From assembly GCA_045837725.1 (NCBI GenBank), contig JBEWZL010000126.1, forward strand, positions 248,001 through 312,000: a stretch of DNA of 64,000 bases. Reading direction: 5' to 3'. Of the stretch, positions 4,301 to 64,000 are shown one piece after another. Under the pieces are notes generated by a model, which saw nothing but the letters and a program-made list of their open reading frames with translations, was not told the origin of the DNA and did no database searches. Source of the DNA: Vermamoeba vermiformis. Taxonomy: Eukaryota. The translations under genes were made by a program, and so were the position numbers. How positions within the stretch are numbered: the stretch's first letter is position 1; every line of letters begins with the position of its first letter.

Positions 4301-4460
4301 TTTGCAGCACTTTTGGCGATTCTTGGTTTGTATGAAGTGACACTACTGGCGTCAGAACTTGCTCATCGTGTTTTCCACTCGATTGAGAAACGACACAAGA
4401 AACGAAGCAAGTATCAAAATATTGAAGATCCAACTAGTCTGTTGATCGTTAACGAAAAGG
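1360..4460 (+). repeat. ~3 kb segment duplicated in inverted orientation at ~18140-21270
   Basis: Long runs of identical sequence in exons and introns. Upstream motifs aacgttcagccac and aagtgacggtatt are also shared. Confidence 0.9.
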
Positions 4461-5412: not shown

Positions 5413-8400
5413 TTAATGAATGGCTTGTGTTACGCTTTCAACGCGCTTAATCAACTCTTCAACAGGCAAGTTAAGCTCTCGGGCAATTTCTTCCATTTTT
5501 TCTTTGGACAGATCCAAAAATCCTTCGATCAAATCTCCGTCAATGAAATTTCGTGCCGTGGAAGTCTTATGCTCGTTAGAGAATGATCGCCATTGCTCGT
5601 GTGAGAAGCCTCCGACGCCCTTAATGACCTTATTCATCTTCTCTTGCAACACGCTGAAAAATTGGTATTTGTCTTCAGGCAACGAAGCAATCACACCGAC
5701 AACGCCGTTCACTGTGCCGAACAACATTGTGGGCAAATTAGCATTTTCACTGTCTGGCAACTTCATCACAAGCGATCCTATAATTGGGCATCAATATTTT
5801 GTCAATTAAAAATTTTTTGCAACTGTGGATCTCGACAACTATTTCTCATTACTATAAAAGGAAAGTGATGCTTACCGTGTCTGAATCTGTTCACGAACTC
5901 GCCGAGATGGAATTCACCGACAACTTCTAATCGGCCTCGATCTTCTTCAGTAGCAGCGTCGCTGTTCTTGCGCACGGTGAACAAATTGAACGAGTTTTCG
6001 CCTCCAATGTAAGTGTCATCATCAATCATCTAAATACATATCATTAGTTATATGCATATTAAACATTAGTGCCCGACACCTACTTCTACAGCAGTCATCC
6101 AGTTGGGGTTATAATCACGTGCCAGTTCTTCAATGACACCGTCAACAGGCTTGTACACCAACAATGAAATTGACTTCATCAAATCTCCCACGACAATAAA
6201 ATCACCACGGCTAGCCAAATAGAGAGCCAAAATGTGTCCAGGGTGATCGCACTCCAAAGCAAGTTCTTTCATGCCATCTTCAGTCGTGCTCCATTTGTGC
6301 AATTGAACCTTCGAATTGACACCTGCCAACAACTTGCCGTTGAAAGCAGACAACGAGTAAATAGCGCCCTTAGCCTCGGCCTCAGTAACAAGCACCAATT
6401 TCTAAATAAACACGGGTCAGCGTAGGTTTCATTAACAAGATCCAAAAGCGACTTAAGCCTCACCTGCTCGGACACACGGAACACCAAGAATCGTCCCTTT
6501 GAAGGCTCGTTTTCGTTGGGATAAGCGAAGGCTGTTCCGACGACAAAGTAGTGCTCAGTATCGTTGCTAAATTGCATGTTGATCAACGAACAAGCGTTCT
6601 CGTAAGTATCCAACTTGTATCGGTCCAAAACTGATACAATGTGTTAATACTAATCCATAATTACGTTTGCAAATGGCGCTAATTACCTTCAAACGTTTGA
6701 TCATCCAAAATCTTAACGTAGTTGGTTTCAACTTCTTCGCCGTTCTCGTCAACAGCGTACTTAATGGTAACTAAGCCAAAAGTTCTGGTGCTCTCTTGAT
6801 GCGCAATTCGGCGCGGCATTTCGCCGAGAGGAACAGTGCGAATATGAAGCTTTTGGATCTCGTCGATAGTGCCAATAGTCAACGAGTTTTCGGTGGCCAA
6901 AGCCAAACTGTCTGGGAAACTATCGCAGTTAAATTCTGCCATGTAGTTAACTTCCTATAATTAGAAGTACATTAGAATATGATATTTAACAGTTTTTCCA
7001 TATTAGGACGTACCTTCAAGTTAACGTTGCTGTACAAAAGTTTCTTGTTGTGGCTGTAAATGACGGTCGGTCTATCTGAGCAAGCGAAGACGTGGCTTTG
7101 GCCCTTAGATACAAATGTTCGCAGAATAACAGGCTGCGTGCCCAATGAAACCTTCTTTCTGTTGCTCAGTGCGCCCGAGTTCTTAAATAATCAGCATTAA
7201 TTACGGCTTCCACAGAGGTCATCACAACTTACCAAGTCAAGCGTGAAATTGAATAAATGACCGTCACCAAGTGCTACCAACAAGTAGTTGACTCCTTCAA
7301 ATGAAGCAAAAAGAACTGAACGAGGAATGATTTCTCCGCCCAACAACTCTTTGCTGATCTCTTGCAAGTTCGGGACTCTCAAGACACGAACACTGATGTC
7401 AGTCCACAAGCCAACAGCGCACAATGTAGCGGTCTCGTTGCCTTCGCCAGCAGGGTCGATATTCACGCACGAAATTTCGTGAGGCATTTCAGCTTGGCTG
7501 ACAGCTTTGATCTTGTTGCCATCGATCTCCAAGTAGTGCAACTTCTTGCCACCAACGGCTAAGAGAATCTGCTTCGAGTTGCACGCGCACACGTTGATAG
7601 TTTGGTCGCCAGGAGGGGTCCACTTGTCAACCAATTTCTGTTGTGTGGCATCGACAAGGAAGACTGACTTGCCAGTGACTTGAATAAACTGGTTGTTGAT
7701 GACGTTACCAGCGTAAATGGTTTGTTGAGTGTGTTCAAATCCACCAATCTCAGTCTCGTCCAGTTCTTCACCAGCCATACCCAAGACACGGCTTTCACCA
7801 ACGAACGCGACGATCAAGTACTTCTCGTATTGAGCGCCAGGGTGCAGGATTAACGGACCAAATGCCTTTGATACCATCGAGCTCGATAGCAGCGTGTTCA
7901 TTAATACCAATGCCATTACGAACGACGCGAAGAGATCCGTCCTTGAATGCGCCAGAGCACGTGACGACTTGTCCCTTTTGAGAGCGTTAGTGACTTGCCC
8001 GCGTGCTTCAGGGTCTGTCCTAGAAAGTACTTACTTGTCCTTGTCGTTCCAAATCAACAACGGTAAAGTCGACAATAGGACCCAAGTTCGGGAATGTGTC
8101 AACGAGGTCGATGTATTGTCCTAATAAAGTGTGAGAACGGCGATTACTATATTAGGAAAGTGCAATACATACCAGTTTCTTTGTCTTTATCAGAACGCAA
8201 TTTAATGACTTGAGAGTCACCGAACGTCGAACCAACGAATGCAAATCCGTTGTCCAAGTAGTTCAATGTTGAAGGACACGAGCACTATAAGAGCGATAAT
8301 AAGTGCCTGCTATGTAAAAATATTCAAAGTACGTACCTCGCCGATAACTTCCAACTTCAGATCTGACACTCTTTGACCATCGTTGGTCAGCACAAGGACG

Positions 8401-9849
8401 TAAATTCGTCCCAAGTGATCGCCAAGCAAGTAACGAGATCCGTTGGGATCGATACGACCTGCAGCCTTCATAATTGTAGTCTTGATGGCAGTCGATTTGA
8501 AGTGCGTGCCACTGTGATACGTGATAGTCTGTTCACCAACAATAATAGCACCACCTTAAGACTAGTGAGTACTATCGTATATATATAATGATAGGCGCAG
8601 TACTTACCAAGAGGCTTTGGCACAGCGATCAACATTGAAGATCCGCCCTCGACATTGGACAAACTCCAGGGTCCGTCGACAAACTCCTTATCCTTCAAAT
8701 TCACTTCGTATGTTTTAACGTGTCTAGTCTCCTTCGTATCTTGATACAATAATGCTATGGTAGGACGAGCACAGCCGTGCAAGAATTTCATGTCAATTAC
8801 CTAAAGACCATTGTTAATATACTATCATATACAATATTTCACGCAATGATAATACTAGTTAGAATAAATAAATTGAGGCAATAAAAGACGTACTGTTAAT
8901 TCTTCTAATCGCATGTTGTAAGCTTCGTGCAATTGTCCCTTCTCGTCAATAGGAATGACTTTGAACAATCCGTCGTACATGTGCAAACCAATTAATCGAC
9001 ACTCGGGGTCAATGATGCTAATTGGACCACTATCAGAGGGTCGTCCAATACGGTCTTGCACGTCACCATTGGCTCTAAGTAGTCGTGTCAGAGTATTCGA
9101 AAAATTTTCTAATTTGCTTTCGAGAGTCAAAAGAATAATTTTTAATAATTAACAAATTATGCATTTAAAAATAGCCCTCAAATGCTCTAGAATAAGGGGC
9201 AAGCACCCGAAATAAAATTATCGATCCAAAAAAAAATTGAGTCTAATTACTCAAATACTTCGTAAATATGCTCTTTAAACGTACCTTGTAATAATCTCTC
9301 CCCTTTCTGCGTCATAAGCCAAAATACAGAATTTATATCGTTCAGTCAAAATAAACAAAAGATCTTGCTTCTCGCCCTAAATTAAGCTGCATAAATAAAC
9401 TGCATATTGGTTTATATTAAATTTTAATTTGATTATAAAATTATTTTAATATTTGTGGAGACGGCAGGTAATTTTTTGTGTAGATCCGCCCGCGCTCACG
9501 AGACATATTTAATGATTCATAAATAACATACCTTTGGTCTGAACAATTCCATATTTGCTATTCTACCATAAATTCCCACATCTAACATTGGCTGTAAGCC
9601 TTCTGGGGTCATCATGTGAATCTCGATCCTTGTACATTTGCTGTATGGTTTTAAATAATATTAATAATTACCCCAACGTGCACACAATATAATGGCGTAA
9701 TAATATAGCATTAAATTATTTTTCTGCAATATATTTCGAAATTCTGAATACCTAATAATCAGATTGAGATCTGTAGGGCTCGTGAAATTACCAACAAGCG
9801 AGTGAGATACCGCCGTTGGCTTGTTTGCTGTAACTACGTAATTCCACAT
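5413..9849 (-). CDS. DDB1: DNA damage-binding protein 1 (CUL4 adaptor), canonical, about 14-15 introns
   Basis: Motifs [70 protein letters not shown] and [14 protein letters not shown] are near-identical to DDB1. One apparent +1 frameshift lies at ~7840. Confidence 0.96.
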
Positions 9850-18133: not shown

Positions 18134-21100
18134 TTACTCAAATTTTTCGTTCACCATCAATGGTGGATCTTCAATAGGTTTGATACTTGCTTCGTTTCTT
18201 GTGTCGTTTCTCAATTGAGTGGAAAACATGATGAGCGAGTTCTGACACCAACAGCGTCACCTCATACAAACCAAGAATCGCCAAAAGTGCTGCAAAGAAT
18301 GCTCCAACTCCTCCAAACTAACATGAACAAGTATTAATCACAAACAAAAGCAATGAAGATCAGTCGTTAATCCTTACTCTTCGTTGTTCAGATTCCAATC
18401 GCCAGTTGTTGTCCAGTTGAAGCATGAACTGAAATGAAAGGGGTTCATTTGTTTTGGCAAATGTTTCACTTGAATGACCCATGTTGTGGAGTTTGGCTTC
18501 ATCACTGACAAATGACATGTAGCCATGACGATTGAACTCTTCATTTGCAAGTTCTGTCTCTCTCACAACCACTGTCATTGTGATGGGAATCAGCAATAGT
18601 CCTTGACAAGAAATGTTAGCAAGAGTTAAAGTTAAGTTGATTGACATTACCTGTCAGTGCTTTGTTCTTGCCTGGCAACACAAGATATTTTGCTTTTGAT
18701 GGTTCAAAATTTGTTGAAGCATTGTTTTCACCACTGAATGATGTTGACACTTCAACTGTTGCAAAAGTGAAATAGCTGTCCAATGAAGTTGGTATTGTAA
18801 CGCCTGCTTCAGTGAAGCGTATTGGTCCATTCATTTGCATCTGTATATTGGCTGTGGCAGTGCTTTTGTTAAAGTGATCTGAAACTTAGGAAGGTACAGC
18901 CATCACCATACTGGTCATAGCAGTTTGTTATGGTTGGAGGGTCATCTAATGGGTATCTATTTGGAAACACAAATGACTGGAAGTTGTACATGACAACAGT
19001 GATGTTCACAGATAAATTGTCTTTGATAATGTTGGCCAGCTCTGATGCCTCTGATTGTGTATTGTAATCTTGAACTGATGCTGTTCGAGCTGAGTTTGCT
19101 GATGGTTCTGTTGCATTGTTGTCTTGACCAACTAAAAGTGGATGATAGTCACTCACATAACTGATTGTTGTGATCAATCCAACCAACAAGATGAATGCTG
19201 CAACAAGCATCAAATAGCCTCCAAACACTGACTCAACTTTCACTGCTTCAATTTTGGATCCTCCATTTGGTTTGGGCTTGACTTTGTATCTTGTTTTCTT
19301 GTGGATGTCAATCTTTGCAAGCCATTGATGAAGATTGATGCCAGCAAAGTACTGAACAAGCAATGAAAGCAACAAAGCTGACAAACAAGAGGTTATTAAA
19401 TTGTATTGAGAATGAGTAACAGAAACTTACCAGAAGTGATGGCAACCCAACCCCACAAAAGAGGAGATTTTGATGCAGCCAATGAAGATGCAAACATCAA
19501 CATGAGGAGAATCTCTTCAAAAGATGTTGATGTTGCTGAGATTGGAAAAGTCCACTTTGCTGGGCTCAGAGAGTCTTCTGAAATTACTTCTGGTGCAAAT
19601 GTTCCCAATGGACAGTATTCTTTGTCTTTGCATGGCAAGCAGTCAATGGAGCCTTCATGTGGTTGATAAGTGCCTTCAGGACACAGCAAGCATGAAGCAA
19701 AGCCATGTGATGGCTGGTAAGTGCCTGGTGGACAGTAGTTGGTTGGATCTCTGCCTCTATTGCCACACCAGAAGGTAATAAGTCTTTCACCACGGTGCAT
19801 GCTGCAAGAGTGATTGCCAGGAGCTGATGGAGCTGCAAGTGCTACTGTTCTTTGGGCATCATATATTTGGAACAAAAGGACATTGTGTCCCACTACAAAG
19901 TTCAACAATGCTAATGACAGACAAATGAGACAAGGCATCATTTAAAGTAGAGCATTGACTAACGTACCTTCAGTTCGCCCTTCTGTGATCTCTGGTTTGT
20001 ATTCAAGTCCTAATGACTTGCTTGGCACTGTGTTGTACACTTCAAGACGTTGAGTTGTGGCATTGAGTGTGCCAAGTATTACAACACCAGAAATTAATGC
20101 CACATCAATGCTGCCTGGAGAAGTGCAAAGTTGAGGTGGGAGTATGGACACGCGTTCAAGTATCTTTTAATCGTTAGCACTGGGTATTGTAAGGACACTG
20201 ATCATATAAACAAGTTTCATACGTACTATAAAGTCAGTAAAATTAAATACATGCAAGTTGCCAGCAGGATCTTCGAGAAGAATGTCTTTGTTCGATGCGT
20301 AGACCCAGTAGTCGTTGTACGTGTCAACTGCGGTAATCGCCCAAGCAGATGGCAGACTTCGCAATGTTGCAGTATGAGTTTTGTAGTTATAAATGAATTG
20401 ATTTGTGTAGTTGAACAAAAAGCTGATTTTCGTATCGGACATTGTCAGACCAACTCCCATTGTCTGGAGGTAGTTGGACGACCGACTCCTCCTGAAATAA
20501 AAAATGTATAAATCGCGTGAATAGTAGACTGTGATATATTATTCAAATTAATTAATATATTACCGCAGTTATGGTCCAATTGAAGGTCTGAAGGTCAACT
20601 TCGAACACGAGCAAGTGCGAACCATTAAAAAATACAAAATTTCTTCCAGAGGGTGATACTGCGATGTCCTGCCTAAAATAAATATTACGCTATTAATAAA
20701 ATTAATTTATTCCTGTAAATTAATAAAGCTTAATAAGTTAACTATTGTCTCTTACACGGCAGATCTTGTAACGTTGAGCGGAATTGTTATTTGATTGAGC
20801 TCTTCGGCAGAGCTGTTATGCAATGTGAATATGTTTATCGTCATGAAGTTATCTTGTGTGCTTGATAATGTTAAATAATAGTGATCACATGACACCACAT
20901 CCCACCAACCACTTTGTTCGTCTTGAATCTGATGTGTGAAGCTAATTGATAAATCCGCATTATATTCAACAATTTCTAAGTGTTGATTTATGCTTGCGTA
21001 GCTGTTCAGAAGTCGTTTTGAGCCAAATTCTGTTGCAGAGCGAGGTGCTGAAAGAAGCTGAGAGTAACACCCACTAAATAAGACAATCAGGCCTAAAATA

Positions 21101-21189
21101 CAGTTGTTATTTTGTGAATATTTTTCCGAGTTGTACTTTAAATATTTAGTTATCTTACCGATACACAACAACTTTAATCCGGATGGCAT
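18134..21189 (-). CDS. GCC2/GCC3 Cys-repeat membrane protein, copy B (inverted paralog of 1451-4468; apparent frameshifts)
   Basis: Exon-by-exon near identity with copy A, with shared introns. Frameshifts at ~18870-18890 and ~18180. Confidence 0.72.
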
Positions 21190-21657
21190 TACCGGCAAGC
21201 ATGCAAATAAATACCGTCACTTAATAAGTACAATGGTGGCTGAACGTTTCATTAGGAATAATTTTTTTTAATTAATTATTCGTTCAGGTAATGCGAGACT
21301 TCGGAGGCAAAGATCTGCCCGAAAAGAAAAGTGGCGTTTTCTGACCGAAGAAAAACCATATTTATCCGCCTTCGAATAGAAAAGCGCAACACAATTCCTC
21401 CAAGCTGGCAAACTTACTTTATTTTTTCGACCTTCAACCACCTGGTTGAAGTTACGATCAGGTAAGCAATCTGGTACGCTTCTATTCTCAGATTATTTTT
21501 TTATTTGCAGCGTTGATCTATATTTTTTTTGCGCCAATAGCCCCCCCCCCATTTTGATTTTTTTTAAATTCTTAATTTTTATTATTTAACTTGGTGCACC
21601 GTTTTAAGGCTACTGCAGCGTTTACTTGATATTAACGGTATTAATTTGTAGAATTAA

Positions 21658-24653
21658 ATGGAACGAAATATTCCTTGGCCGCCAGAAAAGATTCGAGCAG
21701 TCATTTCTCGATTACTACTCACAACAAGGGTGTTTGCTACTCTCATCGCTAGTTCCTGAAATTAATAGAGTTCACTTCGTTAGCACTTCAGGTCAATTCG
21801 CATCAGTAGTATTGCCCGCTTACGAGCTACATCCAGATCTCGGATCCGTTGTCGCAATTCAAAAATGCATTCACGTCAGTGGTGAATGCAACGAACTAAG
21901 GCAAATAGGTAAATTAACATATTTACACGATAAAAGAATAACGGATGAATTTTCTCTCGCCAAGCATTGACGGATCTGTCAGGAAATGACACGTTTCATC
22001 ATTCGTTCTTTGAAATGCTCAGCGTCTATTCAATGGGCCATAAATCGCTCGAACAAGAGATTGAGCGGACTTGGAAGTTATTGACTGAAGTTTATGGCCT
22101 TGAGAAAGATCGAATTTTTGTGACCCATTATGACAGCGATGAAGACGTGGATTTACTACCGAACACAGAGCCTCAAAAGATATGGAAACAATATTTGACC
22201 TGAAGATAGGGTCTTGGCGTAAGTAACTCAAACTTTATTTACGTTATACATTGAGAAATAGGTGACGTTCCGTCTACGGATCTGAAAGTTTTCGTTAGTT
22301 TAGGAAAGTACGATCATTTTTGGCGCACAAAGGCGATACGAACGTTAGTGGTCCTCGTATTGAAATTTATTACGATAGAAGTTGGCAGACGGAGGTGCGG
22401 ATAAAAATGAACAGCTCAAGATCTGCACTATAATTACGCTTCTACAACGTAGAAAGGCAAATGATAGTCTCGATTATGTTCCGACAATTTATACCGGAAC
22501 GTTTATTGGGTTAGAACGTTTGGCTGCTATTCTACAAAACAAAGGATCGAACTACGAAACAGATCTGTTCGATTTTATTATCCAGAAAATTCAAGAAGTA
22601 ACCAGCGCAGAGCCGTACAGAGGAAGACTGTTAAAAGAAGATATCGGATATAAAGACAAAGCGTATCGAATTATCGCGGATCACATCCGAACATTGGCTA
22701 TTGCAATCTCAAATGGAGTTACTCCGGGACCTATAAACGAAGGCTATATCTTAAGAAGGTTAATAAGACGCGCTATTTATTTTGGAAAAGATAAATTGAA
22801 CGCTCCAGACAACTTTATGGATCAACTCGTGGATGTGGTTGTGGATCTACTTGGAGCAGCGTTTCCGGAGCTCAAAACGAACCAATATGTTTGTGCACGA
22901 AAAAATTAATGCGGAGGAGAAAGCTTTTCAACGATGCTACAGCAAAGGAATTACCAAGTTTAGGCAGATCGTGCAAGACTTGAATCCAGGCGATGAAGTT
23001 CCAGTCAACGGAGTAGTCCAAATGTACCATACTTATGGCTTTGATGTTGAACTACAAGATGCTATGGCAGAAGAATTGAGATTGTACATTGACCCGAGGA
23101 AATTCATGCAATGCTTTAATTCTCCGGGCCCTGTCATTTTAAGACCTGAAGACGAACTAGCTTTGCCATTATTCGCTGAAGATATCAACATATTAATACA
23201 ACAAGGTGTTCCAAGAACAGACGATTCGTTCAAATATCAACTCGATGAAACAGCACAAGTCTGCGGCATTTGGACGAATCGATTTCTTTCGGAGAAATTT
23301 GACAGCCAAAACAAGCGATGCGGAATACTATTAGACCGCACAAATTTTTATTCAGGATCTGGCGGCCAGTTATATGATACAGGAACTATTAGTACCAAGT
23401 CGTTCAAATTTATCGTGGACGAAGTTCAATCGTACAATGATTATTTGCTTCATTTGGGCACTTTAGTATCAGGCCAAATCAACGTTGGTGATACTGTACA
23501 TTTGCACGTTGACAGCGATAGAAGATTGTCGATAATGAGCCATCAGACTTGCTCGCACTTACTCAGCTTTGCATTGCGTAAAGTCATGGGTGACCAATGT
23601 GAACTAAAAAGCGTGCAAATCTTGCCAAACAAATTTCGATTGGATTTCAACTCTGACAGGCCATTAACTGAACACGAATTGAACAAATTAGAAGAATTTG
23701 TGAACAAGATGATAGTAGAAGAATTGCCGATTGACGTAAAGTTTGTACCTCTGGACGTGGCCAAATCGATCAATGGAATTTGCGTCAAATTTGCAGGAAG
23801 ATTAACGAATGGTGTAGCACGAGTAGTGTCCTTTGGTGCGCAAATTGATCAAGTTTTGAAATCTCCTTTGGAGCCAAGGTGGCAAGATTTCGCAATTACA
23901 ATTGGCAACGGAACGAATTTTACAAACATGCGTCAAATTGAACATTTTGTGATTGTAGAAGAAGCTGGCATTGCAAGAGGCGAACGAAGAATTATTGGGC
24001 TTGCCGGCGAAGAGACTCACATCGGCTATTTCAATGGCAGAAAAACTCGAGGAACGATGCTGCGGTCTCGAGAAGATGGTCAAAGACAATTTGTTCGGAC
24101 AACTGAAACGGCAATTAGTGGAATTTATTGAAGAGCTGGAGAGTGCCGTAATATCTTACTATCGAAAAGTAGCGCTAAGATATAGAGCTTCAGTGCTTCA
24201 AAAGCTCACTCAAGGCGAGTATATTGAAAATCTCGAAGAGCAAAAACTGCGTGGTCAACGTTTGGTCAACGCGATCCAAAAGCGTTTCGAGAATTCTTCT
24301 GAGGAGTTCTTAGTAGTCATCGAACGACTTGACGAATGTATTCAAAAAGTTGCATGTGATACAGCGACCACTATAGTCAACGAGACTAAGCCCGATGACA
24401 AACCAAAAGCCGCGATGATTTTCACGGGAATGTGGCGAAGCCAAACAAACCTTCGATTATGATCTGTTGTGTCGTCAATTCATTAAGCATCGATAAGGGT
24501 TTATCAGCGAAGCAATGGGCTGCTGCAGTTGTTGCCGTTCTCGGTGGAAAAAGTGGCGGCAAGCCTGGCATGGCTCAAGGTCGCGTACACTTGCTCGACA
24601 AGCTTGATGAAGCGATGAAATTGGCTTTAGAATACGCCATGAAATATCTGTAG
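21658..24653 (+). pseudogene. Degenerate eukaryotic-type alanyl-tRNA synthetase paralog with multiple frameshifts and lost catalytic motifs
   Basis: Motifs WPPEKIR/QSFLDYY, QKCI, HHSFFEML, GLERLAAILQNKGSNYETDLF, AYRIIADHIRTL, GYILRRLIRRA, LDRTNFYSGSGGQLYDTG, EEAGIARGERRI and GGKSGGKPGMAQG. About 7 frameshifts. Confidence 0.85.
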
Positions 24654-33948: not shown

Positions 33949-35689
33949 ATGCAACAGTATATTGTGATATTTCTTTGCTTGTTTGGCCTTCACAGAGCAG
34001 CCTCGTCGTTTGAGCCAATCTGGGTTTCTCCGCCAAACCCCAACATTGACGAAAGCGGTAAGTAAAACGATAAGTTTACTTGTGTGGATAATTTTATTGG
34101 TATTTTACAATCGTTGGTTGATTTAAGTGTTGGCAGACAAGCACAAATCTGCCGAAAACAAAAAATAATGTTATTATTTCACAATAATGTTATTAATTAT
34201 TTGATTCTCAGTCGCAATTATGGAGAGCTACATCGTAGAGAGAGGTACTTGGGCTACTCTAGAGGTCGGAGTCGGTTCTCGTGGGAATGGACCTCTAGCG
34301 GCAATGGATTCGAAGGGCATTTTGTGGCTCATGTTTGGCTCTGCATATCGCAATGGCACTATGAATCTATTCAACGTATGGAATTACAACCCCAAAGCGG
34401 ATCAGTATCGTTACGTTTGGGGAAACAATGAAACTGCCAGATCAGATCCACGCGACCCTGGTGCACTTCGAGTACCTTCTTCATCAAATCATCCTGGTGG
34501 GATAGACTATGGAGGCATAACTATCGACAAGAACGATAATATTTGGATCACTTCGTCGAACTACGAAGGAGAATTGTGGATGTTCAACACCACATCCATG
34601 ACGTTTGTCCGAATGCACGGGCTCGATTCCGAGACGTCACAGCCTAGTGTTGGCGCTACACCTGGTCAGCCCGGAGAGGACGTGTGGCCTGGATATATTG
34701 AAGGTCAATGCATGGTCACTGACACGAAGAACAACCTCTGGATCTTGTCCGGTTACATCGTCAATGAATTCACGAGCGGCGTTTGGCACTTCAACACGAC
34801 ATCGTTTTTATGGACATTCGTTCATGGAAACATTGAAAACCCTGGCCTAGGCAACAATGCAACGTACTTTGGTGGCACGTGGATGTCGGGCTGCTTCATC
34901 GATGCGAACGACAAAGTCTGGCTGTACGGTGGATGGGGACCTAATGAGTCCGCTTACGACGACTATGGCAGCATTTGGACGTTTGATACACGCACCAAGA
35001 GAGTGTGGGAGCTCGAGTGGGGTCCTGATACTTACATGGCTCGTCCTCGATCCGTGTCATCCGACTATCATCCTGACAATCATCCTGGTGCTGGTGAAGG
35101 CATGGTGTTTGTTGATCGATTGGACGGCACTCTGATGCTTGCTGCTACTGCCTCCTACGACACCAGTGGGGACTGGGGCCGAAGTGACCAAGTGTGGCTG
35201 TACAACAAGAGCTTGAAGCAGTGGAAGCTCGTGCACGGTGACATTAACGCTGTTGAGGCCAGTCTTACAAACGAGTTTGTGAACTATCGTCAACCCGGCT
35301 CTCGCTATCCTGGTTCGGTTTATCCTGCTCGGTCAAATGGCATTAACTTCAACGGTGATATTTATGTCATTGGTGGTGGACCTAATTACTTCCTTCCAAA
35401 ACCTAATGCTCGTAATGACATCTGGCTCATTCCCAACGATCAGTGCTCTTCACCAACTGCCAACAAGTGCGATGCCAACGCTGATTGCATCGAAGCGATG
35501 ATTGGGTACTCGTGTGTGTGCAAACAAGGCTATATTGGTGATGGATTCATGTGCGATGTTCGTGCTACGCCAATAGCTCCAAGAACACCAGCGGCAACGC
35601 CTATTAAGAAATCAGTCAGCAGCGGTGCATCCACCGTTATTCCTTCAGTTTTTTTTATTTTGCTCGTTGTTGCCAATATTTGTATATAA
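33949..35689 (+). CDS. Secreted Kelch-like beta-propeller protein with EGF domain and GPI-type tail, copy 1
   Basis: Signal-peptide exon, repeated D..N.LW..GG..W.FNT...W units, EGF CDANADC..MIGYSCVCKQGYIGDGFMC, hydrophobic C-terminus. Confidence 0.85.
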
Positions 35690-35810
35690 TATTGCTAGTA
35701 AGTGTATATAAATAGCCTTTTTTAGTCTTGGCATAATCTAAGTTCAACCGAAAAACGGGTTTCAACAACGGTTAAAAATTAAATTACTTTATAAATTCAA
35801 AGCATCGACC

Positions 35811-37555
35811 ATGCAAAATTACATTTTAACAGGTCTTTGCTTGCTGGCGACGATTGGACTTTATGGAACCGCTTCTGCGGTAGAACCGATCTGGATTTCT
35901 CCCTTGACCGTTAACCCCGGAGGCAAGTTTGACCTTTTTGTAATTAAGCAAAGTCAAAATATATCTATTTACCTACGCAAGATATTGCAGATACCAACAT
36001 TATTTAATTTAGATTTAATTTTCAAGACAAAATAAATAAAGCCTTTTTGGTAGATTTAAACTAATAAATTGTAGCGGATATCCCCGAAAGCTACGACGCC
36101 AGCAAGAACGTGTGGGCAAACATTTCCACAGGTGCCGGTTCTCGCGGAGTAATGCCGATCGTGGCTATGGATTCGAAGGGCATTCTTTGGATCCTCGGTG
36201 GTACTGTTAATCGTGACAACACCGGTGATAGTCTGTTCAACGTATGGAACTATAATCCTAAAACTGATCAATACCGTTATGTTTGGGGAAGTAGCGACAC
36301 CGCTCGATCTGATCCGATAAACGTTGGTGAGCTGAGAGTGCCCAATGAACTCAATCATCCTGGTAAAATATACTACTCATTAAGCACTATCGATAAGAAC
36401 GATAATATATGGTTTGCTTCTTCCGAGCACGACGGCGAGTTGTGGATGTTCAACACCACATCCATGTTGTTCACGAGAATGCAAGGAACATATCCGGACA
36501 CTGGTTTGGTAAGTATTGGGGCTGAACCAGGTCAACCTGCCCAGGACGTATGGCCTGGCTTTGTAGAAGCAGCGTGCATGATCACTGACTCGATGAACAA
36601 CCTCTGGATCTTGGCCGGTGCCAACAGCAACGGCTACACTAACACTGTTTGGCACTTCAACACGACATCATACTTGTGGACCTTCATCGCTGGAGACCCA
36701 ACGCAAGAACTTGCTCTAAATCACAACGCAACATTCTATGGTGGTACTTGGGCTCCTGGTTGTTTCGTCGATGAGAACGACAAAGTGTGGTTGTTCGGTG
36801 GCTACGGCAGAACACGTGACTCTTATGCCAATTATGGTAGTCTGTGGACATTTGATACACGTGGCAGTAGACAGTGGGTACTTGAATGGGGCGTTGACAC
36901 AGCGCAAAGCCTTCCGTTGTCCGTGTCATCTAACTACGACCCTGACAATCGTCCTGGCTCTGGTCAAGGCCAAATCCTCGTTGACCGGTTGGATGGCACG
37001 CTCATGATGGTGCCCAACGGTGGTAATAACGATGCAGGTGACTTGGGCCTGTTGAACCAATTGTGGCTGTACAACAAGACCTTGAAGCAGTGGAAGCTCG
37101 TGCACGGTGACACGAGCTCACTCGATGCTGCTGCTGACTATGTGAGCTATCGTCAGACTGGCAATAGTTATCCTGGCTCATTTTACCCTGGTCGTGGTAT
37201 CGACATGAACGGTGATGTGTACATTGTTGGTGGTGGCGTTGGTCCTTTTACCGCTGTCCCTAATCGCAATGACATCTGGCTCATTCCCAACGATCAGTGT
37301 TCTTCTCCAACTGCCAACAAATGTGATGCCAACGCTGATTGTATCGAGGAGATGTTCGGTTACTCGTGTGCCTGCAAACAAGGCTACACAGGTGATGGAT
37401 TCACGTGCACACCTGCTCCTGTTGCTCCAATTGCCGTTCCCGTTGGTGCTCCTGGGCCTGTCACGCCTGTCGCTGCCACCCCAAAGAAACAAACGAGCAG
37501 TGCTTCAGTCATTGGCTCTGCCGTCGCTTTAATGGCACTCGTTATAGCTTTGTAG
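35811..37555 (+). CDS. Secreted Kelch-like beta-propeller protein with EGF domain and GPI-type tail, copy 2 (tandem paralog)
   Basis: Collinear with copy 1. The single intron 35923-36074 (GC-AG) keeps the frame. Confidence 0.85.
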
Positions 37556-51735: not shown

Positions 51736-54700
51736 ATGGAAGAGAATCAAGAAAATGGGTTTACTACTTATGGTTATACTTATACTGCCTTAAAGCCCTC
51801 AATCGTCACGTAAGCAGCCGAAATTTTTCCTTTCTCGATCTAATTTTCTTTATTGTTAGTCATAACACTGCTGGAGCATTTTTAGGAGTAGGAGAAACTA
51901 ATTTAATAGTAAGCACGATTGGATTTTCGATCAATTCAGTGCAGTATTCATAAATAAGTACTTTTGCTAATTAAAATATTGCTAGGTCGCAAAAAATGCT
52001 TTATTAGAAGTATTTACGCTGGAAGAAAATCAACTTCATTTACAAAACGAAATAGCGACTTATTTATGCGTCAGAAAATTAATGCCAATCAAGACGATGT
52101 TCCCGATCGATTTATTGTTTATTGTGCTTGATATGTACTTCGTCATAGCCTCATTTGGTACGTAGAGTGTCGGATCCACGATTTAAGCCCGCATCCAGTG
52201 GATTTTTAATTGGAGGAATTTTCAAAACTCTAATTTTCGTCATTTTCTATCGATGGAAATATTAATAATGATGTATGTATGCGCAGATTTTGAGACCAAA
52301 GAATTGCGACCTTTGTACAGCAAGAAGATGCTTACACGGGATGAAATCGATCGACAGGATCTGCTTTTTGGTTTGGCATACACCTCTGCGGAACCCTCAA
52401 AACGATTTGATGTTGCCTTTGGTGTCGATGGTGTGATGACCCTACTGCAGTTCGAAGCAGATTTAGTGTTCACTGATGGGCACGGATTAACTGGTACAAT
52501 TTCTGAAAAATCCCATGACTTTACGATAGAAGCTGGTTGTGATATTATAGGTAGGACGTTAAATCGATTTATAAGCATTAAAATTTATTAAATTCCGAGA
52601 AATTGCTAATCGTATTAACATTAGATATGGTCCTTATGGACGGCGGAAACTCAGTAGCGTTTATTACGAAGGACGCAGGAGGATCGCGATCCGTTGCCGT
52701 CAAGACTTATGAAATTGATATAGAACATTCAACTTTACTACCAGGAGCTATTTCAGTAAGTTGAATGGACTATAATATTTGAGATCGATCGTAATAAATA
52801 ACCCAATAAATTTACAGGGAACAACTAACGATACATCTACGTGCACTTTTGTACCTGTTCCGGTGCAAGGAGGCGTAATCACAATTGGTGTCAAAGAAAT
52901 TAATTACTTCAAGTAAGTTTAACCTGAAATTGACCTTCGCGATTATTAAAGATTTACTTATTTGGTAATTTCCACTTTTCAGACCAACCGGAAAAAAGAT
53001 GATTTCATTTAGTTCATCGGATGTGCTCGACGAAGGGGATGACCAGCACTGTTTGATTACAGGATGCTCAATTTTGGACACCAATTTATTTTTGTACAGC
53101 GATGCCGCAGCCAGGTAATTTATTTCAGTCGAAATTTCGAATATTTTTTCTCACGGTCGCGCGTTCATTAATTGCGGCGCTACCATTAGATAGACAGTAT
53201 GCTTGGCTATATATTAACGATTTAATTTATTGCAGGTGGTTTTTAATCCAATTAGAACGAGACAAAGGCGGAGAGGTTTCAAAAATGAACCGTATAGAAT
53301 TGGGGACGCACGGAGAGCTCAATTGCTGCACTAAAATTGCGGTAAGAAAATAACAAAATTACGCGCTCATTGACAAGTATCTAATAATCACAATGTTATC
53401 TCAACGCAGAAAATTCAACACGACCATTCACTTGCTGCTTATATTGTGTTTACGGGCCTCAGCAAAACAGATGCGCAATTGGCAACAATTATTCCGACCA
53501 ATCCTAGCGATCAGACGAGTCGAGATCGGAGTCTAAATATAACTCGTTCTACGCAACTAACGTTGTTTTGAACGAATCAGATCCGCAGAACACAACGGTA
53601 AGTAGAATGAAAAATACTTGTTTGGTCCTAACGAAAATTTTTCAATAGATTGTTGGATGCAGCGACAAAAATAATTATTTGAATATTTTAAAAACTGGAG
53701 CGAGCATTACAGAATACGCGTCATTTGAACAAAGCAACGTCAAAGCTGTGTGGGGCGTCAAAAGGCATGCACAAGATGAGTACCATTCATTCCTAGTATT
53801 TTCATTCGTCGGTCATACGAGAATACTACGGGCGCAAAAAGACGTCACAGAGGTGCGACTTTTGAATATTTTAAATTGTCAGATCCGATCCGCTAACGTT
53901 AAGTTAATTAGGTTACTATTGATTCTATTGACCCTAATACCGAGACTATATACATTGGCAATGCTGCTCATGATTATATTTTGCACGTGACAGACCATGG
54001 CGTACGTTGAAAATTTCCATTTTTGGAAGTTTAGTAAATTCTAACGTATCACGCATAGGCCGCTTTATTGAATAGCGAATTCAAGTTGGTCAGCGAATGG
54101 AAAGTTCCGAGCGGAGTAATTACAGCAGCGGGAGCTACTCCGTCACAACTGACCGTTGCGCAAGGAACAAAGCTTTACCAATTTAACATTGAAGAACAAG
54201 GCCTCAGTTTGCAAGCCACGTCAACGCAGCCAGATGATATTGCGATCTATTATCTATGATAAAGACGAACATAGCGTCGGAAAAGCGATTCTCGTGGCTT
54301 TGTGGCGGTCAAATGCAGTTCAAGTAAGTTCGTCAAATTACCTTATTTGGCAAGTGAAACTCAAGTTAAAGGATTTTAGTGCCTTGCCGTACCTTCGTTG
54401 CAAAATTTATCAACGGTCCAAGTGAACGAGCCTGGGGCGCTGATTCGTTGCCTTGAGTTGAAAAATTCCGATTTGATGATTGGACTTGGTGATGGTCGTG
54501 TATTGCATTATCATTACAATGCTAATACCTACGCCATGAATAGGCAAAAATCTTTTCAAATTGGTATGCGTATAAGATCCTATTCGTGGCTTTTTGTTAA
54601 CTTGAATTTTTTACGCAGGCACTACTCAAGCACGGTGCAGCTCAATTGATATGGAGGGCAATAACTATTTTTTCGTGTGCACGGATCGACCTTCGCTCAT

Positions 54701-56496
54701 CATCTCCGATGATTATGGACTCAAGTAAGCAAAGATCTCACGACGCCAACTAATCGGATAATGACTGATCCAAACGAAGCTTGCTTAAATCGTACTAATT
54801 TTAATTTAATTTACTTTTAATTTGCAGGGTTATCCCTGTCAATTCGGCATCGCCTATTTCGTTCGTTTGTCCATTCAAGTTTGAGTACTTGGGTGACTGG
54901 GGAATAGTAGCTTGCAGCAGTACTGAGGTCAAAATAATTTCGATTGATAATACGCAGAAGTTACACGCCACAAAAGTAAGCAAGACCATAGATCTGGATC
55001 TGGATCTGATGAATTTTTTTTGCAGTTTGACATGAAAGATTACACGCCTTGTGACATAGACAGATACGCTCCAGATGATGTTTACGCCGTGATCAGTTCA
55101 AAAAACAATGGCGCGTTCATTCATTTGATCAATATCGACTTGCCTATTGATCACCCGCAAAATCAAGTAAGACGATAATTTTCACTTAATACATCCGCTG
55201 ATAAGATATTTATAGTACGTGTTTACAATCGACAATGATGCAGAGCCATTGTGTATTTGTCGCTTAAAAATGAAAAATCCAACGACGGGTCAAGTTTCAG
55301 ACTTCTTAGGCGCCATTATTTATTCACAACAGAATAGCAGTATGTAACTTGGAGGTTATGTGCGGTAGGTTATAACAATGACACTAATTATACCGAAACA
55401 GCAATGGCACTGTACAAAGTTCAAAAAAATAACGAAGGCATCAATACCATTACAGAAGTCCAATCGATTCAGTTTGAGGTTCGTAACTATTATAGATAAT
55501 ACAAAGTATATAATATTAATGATTATTGTAGAATCGAGTCCTAAAAATGAAGTACTATAAACACATGGCCATCTTGTGTTGTGTTGAATCGGTACGTGAA
55601 ATATTTCGCGAGATTTTAATTTCTGATTTTATTTTATCATTTGTTACTGATTAATATTAATTTCAAGATGATTCTCGTGAATTTCAATGCCAACGGAGAT
55701 CTAGATTTTGCTGCAGAGTACGACGGACTATTTTTCCACAATATTACCGTCGATGACCCAAGCGGCTTAATTGTTGCGCTGTCCCTGTCAACGGAAATAG
55801 AATTCTTTCAAGTTATTGAGCAAGACAAGTAATGGCTATAAATAATTTTAAATTCGAATTAATGTGAATTTTTTTTAGCCACACCGAGATAAAGCAACTC
55901 GATATGGACCTAGCCGTTGGTTACAAGTGCATCGATATGCCTCTCAAAGTTGCGGTTTTGAACGGCGAGTATAGACAAGTCGTTGCAGGTACAATGCACG
56001 GACGACTGGAATTCTTTTTTGGACCGCCTAACAAAAGAAGTTACAAAATTGATTTCAATCTCTCTGACGCAATCACTTCAATGACGTAAGTGACCACTAT
56101 ATACATACTATAGTTACGTTAGTATACTAACCATTGTTGTACAGTACTACGAAGAATAATACTGTAATTTACACGACCAAATCTGGCGCAGTTGGAGTGT
56201 GCAAATTGATTTCGAAAAAAGAGCACGAAGTTCTGCTAGCTATTCAAATGGCACTTAGCCAGCAGCTGCACACGCTACTTCCGCTCTCGCACGATGAAAT
56301 AAGGTTCAATTATTCCGCTATTGAAGACGAAGAGTACATGTCCAGACCTGCGCTGACTACAAACCTAATCGATGGAGATTTCGTTATGAAATATTTTAGT
56401 TTACGAAAAGAGGAGAAAGAACAGATTGAAAAGGCGGTGGATGTCAACATTACTGAGTTCATTCAGAGATTTCACGAGGGATTGCTGTTTACGTAA
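51736..56496 (+). CDS. Highly divergent DDB1-like (DDB1/CPSF160/SF3B3 family) protein, tandem copy 1, very intron-rich
   Basis: N-terminus YTYTALKPSIVT/HNTAGAFLGVGETNLI/VAKNALLEVFTL; middle SFLVFSFVGHTRIL, ALWRS, LMIGLGDGRVLHY and FVCTDRPSLI; C-terminus GAVGV..NLIDGDFV..EFIQR. All are collinear with DDB1. Confidence 0.82.
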
Positions 56497-56780
56497 CGAA
56501 GATTGTGATTAGTATCATAGGTAAAGTCAATTCGGCTTCCGGCACAAAAACGGCGTCGCCACCGGATATTTTCCGATAAATAACCTAAATTAGGAAGTTT
56601 ACTGACAAATCTTCGATTAAGGTTCGGTGAAGAGCGTCACGATTGGTATCTGGCGCGTGCAAAGCATTCTTGCGAAGTCCAGTCGAAAACTTATTGCAGA
56701 TTATTTTTAATCTTCGGGCATTTAGTTCCGGACAATTCATACCGTATAATAAATTGCCCGGTATCTATTCACGAACAGAT

Positions 56781-59700
56781 ATGATAGATTATCAAGATGG
56801 TTCGCCATCCAATTATGGCTTCGTGCATACTGCATTGAGCTCATCTATAGTCAGGTAAATCCTATTAGGAGAGATTGAGTTAGATCTCATCCGAATACTT
56901 TACAAGTTTGACTAATAATTTTAATTAATAGTCATTCCACGACGGGAGCATTTCTTGGAGCTGGGCAAGTGAACTTGATAGTAAGTGAACACTTATTTAA
57001 ATTACCAAAAATAACCAACTAGAATTTGGGATGTATAATTCTGGGACTGGCCAATCTGTGTCTAACGTGCATCCACGATAATAGGTCTCTAAGAATGCGT
57101 CCTTGGAGGTTTACACTTTCAAAGATAATCAGCTAGAGCTGCAATGCCAAATTCCAACGTACATCCAAGTCCGAAAATTGCTGACCGTCAAGACAATATT
57201 TCCGACGGATTTAGTCTTCTTAGTGCTAGACATGTTCTTAGTAGTCGCTGCATTTGGTAAGCGGTCGTTTATTTTACGACAAAAGTTTCTTTCCTAATCT
57301 GATCAAAAAGTTTTTCTTCTCAACGCGCCAAGAATATTGAATCTGATCGCATCTATAATTAACTAACCCTTATAATCAGATTTTGAGACTAAAAATCTTC
57401 AACCTCTTTATGGAGAAAAGATCTTGACGCGTGACCAAACTGATCATGCAGATCTCCTATTTACTGCTTATCTTCCGACTGAGCCGTTGCCTAAACAATT
57501 CATAGCTGCCTATAGCGGCGATGGCGTGTTTATGCACTTCAATTTTACGATGGATCTGTCTTTCTCTGAAGATCGCGGTTTGGCGGGAACTGTAACGATG
57601 ATATCAAACGACTTTATCATGGACGTTGGATGCGATATAGTTGGTAAGTAGGAATTAAATGATAATATAGTTTGAAGCCAGTTTTTGGCAAATGCAGAAA
57701 CTTTTTCTGTGTTTTGGACCGACGCAACTTTTGAAAAGGCGTTCCAGATTGTCTAATATCGCGTTATATTTTAGGTTCGATCTTTTTAAAGGGTGGATAT
57801 ACTGTTGGATTGATAATCAGAAATACGGAGACGCGTGCAATATCTGTCCGATCTTACGAAATAAAACCGGGCCAAGCGAAGTTGGTTCCTGGCGCTATTT
57901 TAGTACGTAATAATCTTATTTATTAATCTTCACTAAAAATATAATATCTTTCTTTCCTTATTTATACATAAATTTCAGGGAACAACGGATGACGTAACAA
58001 CTTGCGTTTTTGCGCCCTCTCTCACTCACGATGGCCTAGTAACCATTGGCTCAAAAGAAATCAATTATTTTACGTAAGTTTTAAGCGAAAAAACCTCCTG
58101 TCATGAGCATGACCCTGATCCTTCTTTTTTTTTTGTACAAAAGGCCAACGGGCAACATTTCGGCATCTTTTCCGAATGCGGAGCTCTCCGACGGACGAAA
58201 TGGTCATACAATCAAAACAATCAAGGCGTGCATAGCTCTAGAAAATAATCTGTTTTTATATGGAGACGTCTTCGCCAGGTATACTAAATATCTCCGGATC
58301 GGGTACAGGACTAATTTTTTGCTTTAAACCAGATGGTTTTTGATCTGCATCGAAACAGGCAATGCCGGACAAGTTCCTAAACTTAGCAGGATTGAGCTAG
58401 GAGCTTATGGCGAATTCGAGTGTTGCTCAAAACTTTCCGTACGTCTTTTCAGATCAGATCAAATGAACTAAATATTTCTCAGAAAATTCAACACGATCAT
58501 TGTTTGCTTGCCTACGACGTTTACATGGGCATGACGAAAACGGACTCACAATTAGTATCAATTATTCCGACTAATCCCGTCGGTCAACAAGTCAAAAGTC
58601 ACTCCAAATATAGTTCATTCTACGCGACGAGCGTCGCTGTAGCTGTAAATGCAACCGATTCGACGGTAAATAACGAAAAAAAATAATATAGCCAAATTTA
58701 ACTATTTAGTTTAGATTGTTGGTTGTAGCGAACAAAATAACTCGCTGAGCATTCTTAAGAACAGAATTGATGTCGTAGAGTACGCCCGATTTGAACAAAA
58801 TAACGTGAGAGCCATGTGGGGATTGAAACAGCGACTAGACGATGAATATCACTCGCTGTTAGTGTTTTCCTTCTTTGGTCAAACACGAGTCATGCGGGCT
58901 GGAAAAGAGGTCACGGAGGTACTTCCGAAGCAAAAATTCACTTTTTATTAGAATAATCTAACGTTGCACAAACAACTACAGGACCTGTCTATTAAAGCTA
59001 TTAGGCCCGACGTTGAAACATTGTTTATTGGAAACGCCCGCCATGGGTTTATAGTACACGTGACTACGCAAGGGGTACGTTAGAGACACATAAGGGCGTT
59101 TAAGTCATTTTCTCATATAATCTAACGCAGATAGCGCTATTGGACATCAATTTCAAGATCGTTCATGAATGGAAAGTTCCGAACGGAGTTTTATCCGCTG
59201 CTACTGCGTGCATGTCACAAGTGACGGTTTCGCAAGGCAACAGACTTTACAACTTTCAGAATAGAGCAGCTTGGGCTTATTCTACAGTCATCGGTCGGTC
59301 CAATCTGATGACGTGGCGTTCATTATCTACGAAATGGACCAAAAAAATCAAATCGGAAAAACTGCTTTTGTTGCATTATGGCGCTCAAATACTGTTCAGG
59401 TAACAATCTACGCAAATCGAAAAATAATATTATGCCCTAATGCAAATCAAATATATAACGTACTGATAGATGAATCCACTTCCCAAGTAAATATTTATAT
59501 TTATACAATACTAATAATCTCTTAAACAGTGCCTCTCGTTGCCGTCGCTGGAAAAATTATCTACGATTCAATTGCACGAACAATCAGACGCCGTGATTCG
59601 CTGTCTAGCACTGCACAACACAGACTTGATGATCGGACTGGGCGATGGTCGTGTGCTACATTACGTGTACAATACTACGACCCACGCTTTGACTGGTGGC

Positions 59701-61862
59701 AAAACTTTTCAAGTTGGTACGAATCCTTCAGAGTATTGTTGTGCCTATTGAAATTCATACGATCCATTTTTGCACCATAATTATGATATCGGGAATTTCC
59801 CCCCATCGTCCTTCCCATACGGTATACTTGAACCCCAGCCTTGGGATCGAATATTGCCTAATAAGGAAATTCCACGTGGCTGTGGGGTCGACTATTATCG
59901 TTAGGAGCGAAAAAAGGGACTCTATGAATGAATTATGAATGCGCACAACAAAATTGCAGCAATATTAACACAGATTATTTCTAGGAACTACTCAAGCCCG
60001 CTGTGCCTCCGTTAACATTCCGGGAATCGGCCGGAGTTATTTTTTTGTTTGCACTGATCGACCCTCGCTCATTATTACCGATGAATATGGCATGAGGTAC
60101 CTTTAAAACCAACTTTATTAGTTGTAACTAAATCTTAATTTTGATAGGGTTGTTTCAGTGAATTTGAAAGTTCCGATCTGGTACGTTTGCCCATTCAAAT
60201 TTGAATTCAGCAATGATTGGGCACTTGTTGCGTGTAGCGACTCAGAAGTCAAAGTGATCGCGTTAGACAATATCAATAAGATACTACCAACAAAAGTACG
60301 TACTGAAAACTTCCATATCTAGTAATTAACGATATCTTTTAAAGTTTGATCTGAAAGAATTTACGCCGTGCAATATTGACCGATTTTCACCGCATAATCT
60401 TTATTCGGTGATTTGTGCTAAGAACAATGGCGCCTATATTCGACTGATTGACATTGAACAGTCAATTAACCATGCCCAAAATCAAGTACGCTTATTATTC
60501 CATATTTATACTATTTTAGTACTGATGTTTGTGACAGTACTTTTTTACGATCGATAATGACGCTGAGCCCTTGTGCATTAGTCACCTCAATATGAAAAGT
60601 CCTCGTAGCGGAAAATTAACGGATTATCTCGGCGCTGTGACATTTACAGCCGAAACCAGCAGTAAGTTAATTTAATTTTAGATCAATTAGGAGTCTACTT
60701 GCTTATCTGTTTTTTTGCGTAGCTTTGTCTTTGTACCAAATCGAAAAGACCGCCGAAGGAATTTTCATCGTGATGGAACGTCAGTCCGTTCAATTCGAGG
60801 TAAACACTTTTTGACACTTTTGCCGACCGCAAAATTTTGTTCGGTTTCAGCCAAACGGCACAGGTAAATGCTTTACTAAGAGAGTACTAATTGCTGAGAT
60901 AGGCTCGAGTCATCAACATGCGGTGCTTCAAAGATATGATCATATTGTGCTGCCCTGAATCTGTAAGTCGAAAACAAATTTTGACACTTTTTTGACACGT
61001 GTCACTGAAAAATTTTTACAGCTAATTTTGGTGAACTTCAATTCGGACGGTGATTTAGACTTTGTCACGAACCACGATGGCTTTTACTATCATAATGTAG
61101 CATCGGATCCACGAAGCGGTTTAATTGTTCCGCTTTCATTGTCAACCGAAATAGAAATCTTCGAAGTCGAGAAGAACGGGTACGTTCAAATACTAAAATT
61201 TTAAATATATACCACTCTCTAATATTTATGGCTAGTAGTACGAAGATTCAGGAGGTAAAGATGGAACGGAGTAGCGGCGACAAAAGTATGATGGATATGC
61301 CACTGAAAGTAGCAATTTTGAACGGCGAGCACAAACAAGTTGTTGCAGGCACAATGCAAGGACGACTTCAATTCTTTTTTGGACCGTCAAATAATTCACT
61401 GAAAAGTCATACCATCGAATATCACCTCTTCGATACAGTCTCCTCAATGAAGTACGTTTTGTCAACTGATTTTGATTTATTCAATTTGTTATATAACCTA
61501 TTGAAATTAGCGGTACCAAAGATGGGAATGTAATTTATACGACGCAATCTGGCGCAGTTGGAGTGTGCAAATTGATCTCAAAAGAAGATTACAAAGTTTT
61601 GTCTGAAGTGCAAAGACAAATGAGCGAGCGATTGAAAATGCTCGTTCCAATCTCCCACGACGAGATTCGATTCAATTATTCCGCTGTTGAAGACGACGAG
61701 TACCTGTCCAAAGCGTCACTGAACACCAATCTGATCGATGGAGATTTCGTTATGAAATTTCTGACGCTACGAAAAGAACAGCAAGAACAAATAGAGAAAG
61801 AATTGAATATGAACGTCACTGAGTTCATTCAGAGATTTCACAAGGGACTGCTATTTGCATAG
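56781..61862 (+). CDS. Highly divergent DDB1-like protein, tandem copy 2
   Basis: Paralog of copy 1 with the same exon layout: YGFVHTALSSSIVS/HSTTGAFLGAGQVNLI/VSKNASLEVY, EYHSLLVFSFFGQTRVMR, LMIGLGDGRVLHY, NLIDGDFVMKFLTL. Indels at ~59250-59300. Confidence 0.82.
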
Positions 61863-61938
61863 TCATACTTTTCCGAGAATTTCTACGCAAGATCTACAAT
61901 AAAACATATTTTATTTTCAACACAATGGCTAATAAATT

Positions 61939-64000
<2,062 letters not shown>

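Follow-up and report, generated by a model that had tools for sequence, protein, structure and literature searches.

The genome of the amoeba Vermamoeba vermiformis holds a tandem pair of highly divergent genes related to DDB1, the adaptor of the CUL4 ubiquitin ligases, in the same window as a conserved DDB1 gene. The leading, and still tentative, explanation is that the two proteins are second adaptors for the single canonical CUL4 of this amoeba, comparable to Rik1 of fission yeast, with receptors of their own and a new pocket to hold them. The window, meaning the whole stretch of DNA that was analyzed, is 64,000 bases long (C126:248001-312000, that is, contig JBEWZL010000126.1) and belongs to an intron-rich genome of 43.3 Mb in 309 contigs. 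The two genes, called A and B here, occupy 51736..61862 exactly, from the ATG of A (51736) to the stop codon of B (61862).

51736..56496, plus strand: gene A, DDB1-like, 22 exons, 1108 amino acids read through its frame breaks; modeled from numeric splice sites
56781..61862, plus strand: gene B, DDB1-like, 22 exons, 1114 amino acids read through its frame breaks; spliced transcript seen
5413..9849, minus strand: canonical DDB1 (read from 9849 to 5413), 15 exons, 1089 amino acids, one +1 break near 7846; likely the parent family

All 21 predicted introns of each gene are GT-AG, with a median length of 59 bases in A and 61 in B, and 20 of the 21 share their aligned codon and phase between the two genes, the remaining one lying a single column apart. 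The read-through proteins are free of internal stops over their full length. The domain order of the superfamily, PF23726 (second propeller) followed by PF03178 (CPSF_A), is seen above cut-off in single exons of both genes; in A the two matches score 43.8 bits in exon 10 and 39 bits in exon 22. PF10433 (first propeller, BPA) finds no match in either gene, yet that region aligns to DDB1 by profile, and the profile of the A/B family matches that of DDB1 along its whole length, with 23% identity over 994 columns and a probability of 100. A three-propeller fold would follow from these alignments. The first-pass annotation, made from the DNA letters alone, had described two collinear, intron-dense genes alignable to DDB1, and this description holds; the motifs it quoted are all present, although B has a variant of SFVGHTRIL.

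Since the genome also has canonical DDB1, SF3B3 (contig C102) and CPSF160 (C96), A and B are extra genes. The canonical DDB1 groups in a tree, at a support of 100, with the DDB1 of Amoeba proteus and two environmental sequences, and a genome search with two exons found only A and B, plus canonical DDB1 for the last-exon query. Against 19 DDB1 proteins, A and B score 85-176 bits; against the amoeba's own SF3B3 they score 33 and 18, and against its own CPSF160, 20 and 15. The family profile reaches a score of 279 with the amoeba's DDB1 and gives no alignment to its SF3B3 or CPSF160, and a family-only profile of exons 10-12, searched against the PDB, scores 49-54 bits with DDB1 chains and 35 bits with SF3B3, CPSF160 not being listed. 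The lengths of A and B are also near the 1089 amino acids of DDB1, compared to about 1190 for SF3B3 and about 1520 for CPSF160. In columns where the three paralogs all differ, A matches DDB1, SF3B3 and CPSF160 in 18, 10 and 10 of 92, and B in 26, 12 and 8 of 91. A and B would thus descend from DDB1, a view that rests on narrow distribution, scores, length and motifs and is not a tree result.

They should not be filed as DDB1 proper, because conservation and the receptor pocket both fail; the ortholog is the gene at 9849-5413. Identity of A and B to the amoeba's own DDB1 is 23 and 22% in BPA, 25 and 22% in the second propeller (BPB), 19 and 20% in the third (BPC) and 22 and 34% in the C-terminal domain, a range of 19-34% where true DDB1s give 48-69%. 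The claim that BPB is the most recognizable domain therefore stands only modestly: it is the best-kept propeller, by a small margin in identity. Among columns invariant in DDB1, A and B keep 25 and 23 of 75 in BPA, 35 and 35 of 86 in BPB, and 23 and 27 of 101 in BPC, where the alignment to DDB1 is unreliable.

The available parts of PMC3938054 and PMC11763709 describe BPB as the part of DDB1 that binds CUL4, and the cleft between BPA and BPC as the part that takes receptors or viral H-box helices. In the excerpt available of PMC12184330, the H-box pocket consists of Leu328, Pro358, Ala381 and Phe382. None of these four is kept in A (two alignments) or B (one alignment), all being replaced or deleted; residue numbers here are counted along human DDB1 in the alignment. 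The receptor cleft has been remodeled, as first proposed, and the equivalents of Tyr316 and Asp318 are lost as well. In BPB, both genes retain the counterparts of Ala400, Trp561 and Arg589, and Ile587 is changed to Leu or Val, so the retained tryptophan noted at first pass is present in both copies; SF3B3 and CPSF160 lack it. We take these BPB residues, together with Ile402 and Leu404, to be CUL4 contacts, although a literature search gave no confirming text; Trp561 presumably sits at the CUL4 interface, and Ile402 and Leu404 are assumed to form part of a second contact.

53649..54975, plus strand: BPB propeller of A, exons 10-15, from alignments including a profile alignment
58715..60295, plus strand: BPB propeller of B, exons 10-15, from domain matches and alignment
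54303..54305, plus strand: Trp codon of A aligned with human DDB1 Trp561
59379..59381, plus strand: Trp codon of B aligned with human DDB1 Trp561

The two copies have diverged from each other while keeping their exon structure under selection, as the first-pass annotation held. They are 56% identical over 1098 codons, with 0.305 nonsynonymous changes per site (dN) and about 2.9 synonymous changes (dS); the ratio of about 0.11 is rough because dS is saturated. Identity at the three codon positions is 0.67, 0.80 and 0.45, and exons are 65% identical at the DNA level while introns, at 39% against 38% for mismatched pairs, are at background. On these figures, A and B are under purifying selection. 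The saturation of synonymous sites marks the duplication as old by the same measure, and a small family tree left the date of the split unplaced. Between A and B, identity is 51% in BPA, 59% in BPB, 58% in BPC and 63% in the C-terminal domain. The dN of BPC, 0.263, is the lowest among the three propellers, though BPC is the furthest from DDB1; as aligned, BPC is constant between A and B but different from DDB1.

The family evolves fast and is restricted to the lineage of this amoeba, probably a member of the Tubulinea. A search of 1.84 billion representatives gave eight matches, all fragments, and metagenome contigs gave three loci among 487 pattern matches; for full-length relatives, a search of proteins of 554-2000 amino acids with the relative P0001 found none among 1639 candidates. 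Members from different lineages or paralogs are 44-71% identical, and spliced products of relatives (P0001, P0010, P0011 and P0012) occur in JGI and Logan data. One locus (L030) has six introns with the same positions and phases as in A and B. At two others (L029 and L031), the DDB1-like gene, 57-68% identical in its last exon, has the same phosphatidylinositol 3-kinase (PI3-kinase) neighbor as B, whose coding-strand stretches are 73-96% identical.

61942..64000, minus strand: PI3-kinase gene, convergent with B, PF00454; neighborhood conserved; probably Vps34-like by its motifs

Contigs of 605,993 and 492,851 bases occur both in the family clusters and in the canonical DDB1 cluster, and these equal sizes suggest that the linkage of the two genes is conserved in relatives. 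On those contigs, DDB1 is 93-95% identical to the Vermamoeba copy, while the longer family fragment stands at 52-71%. Nothing beyond the DDB1/SF3B3/CPSF160 superfamily came from atlas searches, and exact look-ups of two open reading frames from the window gave no match. In the literature, the titles and abstract openings of the papers listed did not describe a divergent DDB1 paralog in amoebae, while genome-paper supplements and subscription journals could list such genes. The reviews, in their available parts, give fungal examples of divergent second DDB1-type adaptors, Rik1 and Mms1 (PMC11763709, PMC2785787), and the amoeba pair is probably an undescribed, independent variant of the same kind.

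In the proposed mechanism, A and B would use BPB to dock on the helices at the N-terminus of the one canonical CUL4. Their BPA-BPC cleft would be closed to the H-box helices of the DDB1- and CUL4-associated factor (DCAF) type and fixed in a new shape for their own receptors or substrates, and the two proteins may run a second, lineage-specific targeting route. The closest parallel is Rik1 of Schizosaccharomyces pombe, which the accessible portion of PMC11763709 presents as a distant DDB1 homolog that acts in the CLRC complex with Cul4 and a receptor of its own. Rik1 resembles A and B as a divergent DDB1 homolog, the likeness being one of description and not of sequence; it differs in that there are two tandem copies here, whose origin the lineage suggests to be independent, and in that a link to heterochromatin is known for Rik1 only. 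Rik1, too, coexists with a canonical Ddb1. Compared to DDB1 itself, A and B have the same BPA-BPB-BPC-C-terminal domain layout and find in it their best sequence match, at only about 22% identity and with other introns and far faster evolution.

Several results weigh against a DDB1-derived adaptor for CUL4. In bits to DDB1, A (168) and B (146) stand at a distance comparable to that of SF3B3 (194) and CPSF160 (119), and none of their 21 introns coincides with any of the 14 in canonical DDB1. An LG+G4 tree joined A and B to the SF3B3 and CPSF160 outgroups at 99, a mixture-model tree left them unplaced on a stem of 5.2 changes per site, and approximately unbiased (AU) tests rejected no placement (p 0.53 with SF3B3, 0.66 with CPSF160 and 0.21 nested with Tubulinea DDB1s). 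These analyses had 23 and 14 rows, with one SF3B3 and one CPSF160, and 18 and 9 of the rows came from 120 listed matches or cluster members. The phylogeny proposed at first pass, in which a grouping with SF3B3 or CPSF160 was to count against the idea, thus rejects neither grouping, whereas separate orthologs of both exist and scores to them are low.

In the cullin-binding propeller, the equivalent of Ile402 is Phe and that of Leu404 is Gln in both copies. SF3B3 does not serve cullins as an adaptor, yet it retains 37 of the 86 invariant BPB columns compared to 35 in A and B, so the retention of BPB may reflect the fold only. For this reason it is the tryptophan and the excess of BPB over BPC, not the overall BPB count, that carry the argument. 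AlphaFold models of the C-terminal 422 amino acids of one relative, from a family-only and a DDB1-padded alignment, reached a predicted local distance difference test (pLDDT) of 44.6 and 40.5, best in the C-terminal helices; given such poor models, the fold rests on alignment. A Foldseek search with the better of these low-confidence models ranked DDB1 first, CPSF160 12th and SF3B3 21st, all with template-modeling scores of about 0.2 and a root-mean-square deviation of about 19, and a search of a viral library gave generic propellers; neither was used as evidence. Finally, a spliced product is seen for B only, and two of the frame breaks in A are the weaker-supported ones, as discussed below. 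The adaptor interpretation offered at first pass keeps its footing in the extra genes, purifying selection, kept tryptophan and lost pocket; its appeal to BPB retention is weaker than was implied.

The most serious rival, which has a real though lesser chance of being right, is that the family left the CUL4-based cullin-RING ligase (CRL4) altogether and that its triple propeller is a platform elsewhere, as in SF3B3 and CPSF160. The modest BPB count, the two changed contacts, the lost receptor pocket and a distance from DDB1 equal to that of the two non-ligase paralogs would all be expected of such a scaffold. SF3B3/Rse1 and CPSF160 also have the same three Pfam propeller families. They are longer than A and B, which score only 15-33 bits to them. 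The Trp561 equivalent has survived in both copies despite saturated synonymous sites, and it is missing from both paralogs. In A and B, BPB also retains a larger share of its invariant columns than BPC does (41% against 23-27%), unlike in SF3B3 (43 and 43%) and CPSF160 (30 and 45%).

A further possibility is that A, though not B, has recently become a pseudogene, leaving B as the functional copy. It is compatible with any of the other explanations and is unlikely. Neither set of frame breaks appeared in the first-pass annotation: A has three apparent +1 bases (near 53515, 53531 and 54248) and B has two (59251 and 59296), and a literal reading of the frames ends at amino acid 395 in A and 613 in B.

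53510..53535 (approximate), plus strand: two +1 bases in exon 9 of A, from comparison of A and B DNA
54240..54252, plus strand: one +1 base in exon 12 of A; the relative P0022 is in frame there
59251..59296, plus strand: two +1 bases in exon 12 of B, missing from independent contigs

Neither extra base of B is present in the contigs of an independent DNA run (X1), and a transcript piece from run X6 over 59130-59399 is eight bases shorter, which restores the frame of B. For A, an X1 contig over 54089-54736 leaves out exactly one base, somewhere inside that span, and P0022 reads in frame through the exon-12 breaks. Eight breaks were seen in the window, each of them +1, and three lie outside A and B: one at 7846 (minus strand) in canonical DDB1, and two near 22880 and 24000-24040 in an alanyl-tRNA-synthetase-like gene; at the DDB1 break, the relatives P0023 and P0144 (95-97% identical) read through. 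The five breaks of A and B are thus probably consensus or assembly errors. The two in exon 9 of A are likewise probably assembly errors, judged from the A and B sequences, and the integrity of A is less certain than that of B. The contig seems to carry single-base insertion errors, and frameshifts on it should not be taken as pseudogenes without reads. Programmed frameshifting was ruled out, as independent DNA lacks the extra bases of B and relatives read through.

Run X6, selected for containing this stretch, consists of contigs that are RNA by guess and are labeled with a different organism; among the runs listed as containing the stretch, none is on record as RNA. At least 10 of the 21 predicted introns of B appear in it as joints, seven of these labeled GT..AG; five further introns show loose ends or inserted letters, and one contig of 1545 bases joins exons 13 to 22. 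Over A, depth in X6 is zero in all bins but the last (0.85), compared to 4-14 on B. The idea that the genes might be unexpressed pseudogenes thus fails for B, which is spliced in a public run, and keeps some ground for A, with its three breaks and the few reads in run X12. On the other side, A has no stop in 1108 codons, and the breaks of the window, all of one kind, reach genes other than A. In the RNA runs X10 and X12, 168 of 174 and 283 of 284 aligned reads are less than 95% alike, as in a diverged strain, so their near-zero depth on A and B is uninformative on expression. Over 56915-61966 in X6, the neighboring PI3-kinase and von Willebrand factor A genes are almost uncovered while B is covered, a hint of condition-specific expression of B. 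Intron 20 of B (61180-61238) has tandem acceptors three bases apart, of which the X6 transcript takes the downstream one.

A less probable alternative again is a parallel CRL4-like ligase, in which A and B pair with divergent cullins through a rebuilt interface. The genome has CUL1-type cullins (C102, C123 and C244), CUL3 (C292), one canonical CUL4 (C78), APC2 (C75) and three odd ones. The search for extra CUL4 paralogs that the first-pass annotation had called for turned up a tandem pair, C306a and C306b (L035), derived from CUL4 and located on another contig than A and B.

C306:241933-239471, minus strand: C306a, CUL4-derived cullin, about 630 amino acids
C306:239402-236882, minus strand: C306b, CUL4-derived cullin, about 630 amino acids

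In trees the two are sister to CUL4 (support 97/96 and 99/96), with alternatives rejected at p 0.023, 0.014 and 0.006. Their divergence, 26-27% identity to CUL4 and 40% to each other, parallels that of A and B from DDB1, and both keep the C-terminal domain and a Lys aligned with what we take to be the neddylation position of cullins. The Mms1-Rtt101 system of budding yeast would be the model for such a pairing, again likened by description: in the available text, Mms1 of Saccharomyces cerevisiae is a divergent DDB1-like adaptor that works with the divergent cullin Rtt101/Cul8 (PMC11763709, PMC2785787), and CUL4 is not conserved in sequence in budding yeast (PMC11763709). Vermamoeba differs in keeping canonical CUL4 and DDB1. 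Its divergent cullins also start near helix 3 and are without helices 1, 2 and 5, whereas CUL4A binds the BPB of DDB1 with helices 2 and 5, according to the accessible part of PMC3938054. Docking of the standard kind is thus closed to the C306 pair. The two start codons have only 152 and 69 bases in front of them, the frame of C306b is broken at its first intron, and a single RBX1 stood among the four top matches read. Either the C306 pair has nothing to do with A and B, or it belongs to a rebuilt ligase. A second CRL4-like ligase, made of duplicated parts with a new interface, beyond H-box-type hijackers and beside an intact canonical CRL4, is an improbable outcome. DET1 gave no match in the genome search, which is uninformative. 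What cullins without these helices bind is a separate question that the CUL4 copies raise.

Two other cullin-related genes were seen. A short gene on C260 (about 542300-542700, minus strand) has the N-terminal cullin repeat only and is presumably CACUL1-like. At L037 (C3:69000-76000, minus strand), the ab initio gene model fuses the C-terminal half of a divergent cullin with a domain like that of dual-specificity phosphatases. The match to PF00782 is only 17.5 bits in one exon, with His-Asp in place of what we take to be the usual His-Cys of the motif.

Two explanations are very improbable. The first-pass annotation had also proposed decoys, which would absorb the factors with which pathogens hijack DDB1; in a variant of this idea, the proteins titrate CUL4 and bring it no substrates. 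Fast evolution fits such a role (a relative of the family is about 62% identical, while its canonical DDB1, by the inferred linkage, is 93-97% identical), and water and aquifer metagenomes, in small shares, are listed for the stretch. The proposal fits poorly, since an H-box decoy would be expected to retain the cleft and give up the cullin site: A and B appear to show the reverse, with the pocket of the known hijackers lost and the Trp561 equivalent kept, and the family has no relatives in viral contigs. A role in CUL4 titration may still apply. The other is that A and B do not come from DDB1 and are an old fourth member of the DDB1/SF3B3/CPSF160 group or a derivative of SF3B3 or CPSF160. The unrejected AU placements and the lack of common introns would allow this, and slow evolution of DDB1 would make every family member look nearest to it. 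An old family should be widespread, though, and the eight matches are short fragments without a telling name; where the paralogs differ, A and B match DDB1 most. A viral or phage origin was ruled out: phage records gave no match, and of the pattern stretches in viral contigs 0 of 22 matched the family and 0 of 7 matched C306a.

Some other genes of the window deserve mention. The alanyl-tRNA-synthetase-like gene (22379-24460; PF01411) has long open stretches and an unusual C-terminal part, and may be a divergent paralog. An inverted duplication (1348-4458 and 18144-21283), 88% identical over 3.2 kb, places its copies on either side of canonical DDB1, and its gene has ephrin-receptor-like cysteine-rich repeats. 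At 34205-37555 there is a tandem pair, 70% identical, of genes with a kelch propeller and epidermal growth factor domains, and at 15879-16747 a 2-oxoglutarate-Fe(II) oxygenase frame overlaps a ubiquitin-like frame, possibly as one spliced gene.

Few components of the ubiquitin system change as slowly as DDB1. If A and B are indeed second adaptors for CUL4, they would offer a natural experiment in the acquisition of new receptors by a cullin-RING adaptor, and they would show how little of BPB suffices to hold CUL4. Free-living amoebae harbor viral and bacterial manipulators of ubiquitin ligases, and an adaptor without the usual hijack site would be a testable host counter-measure.

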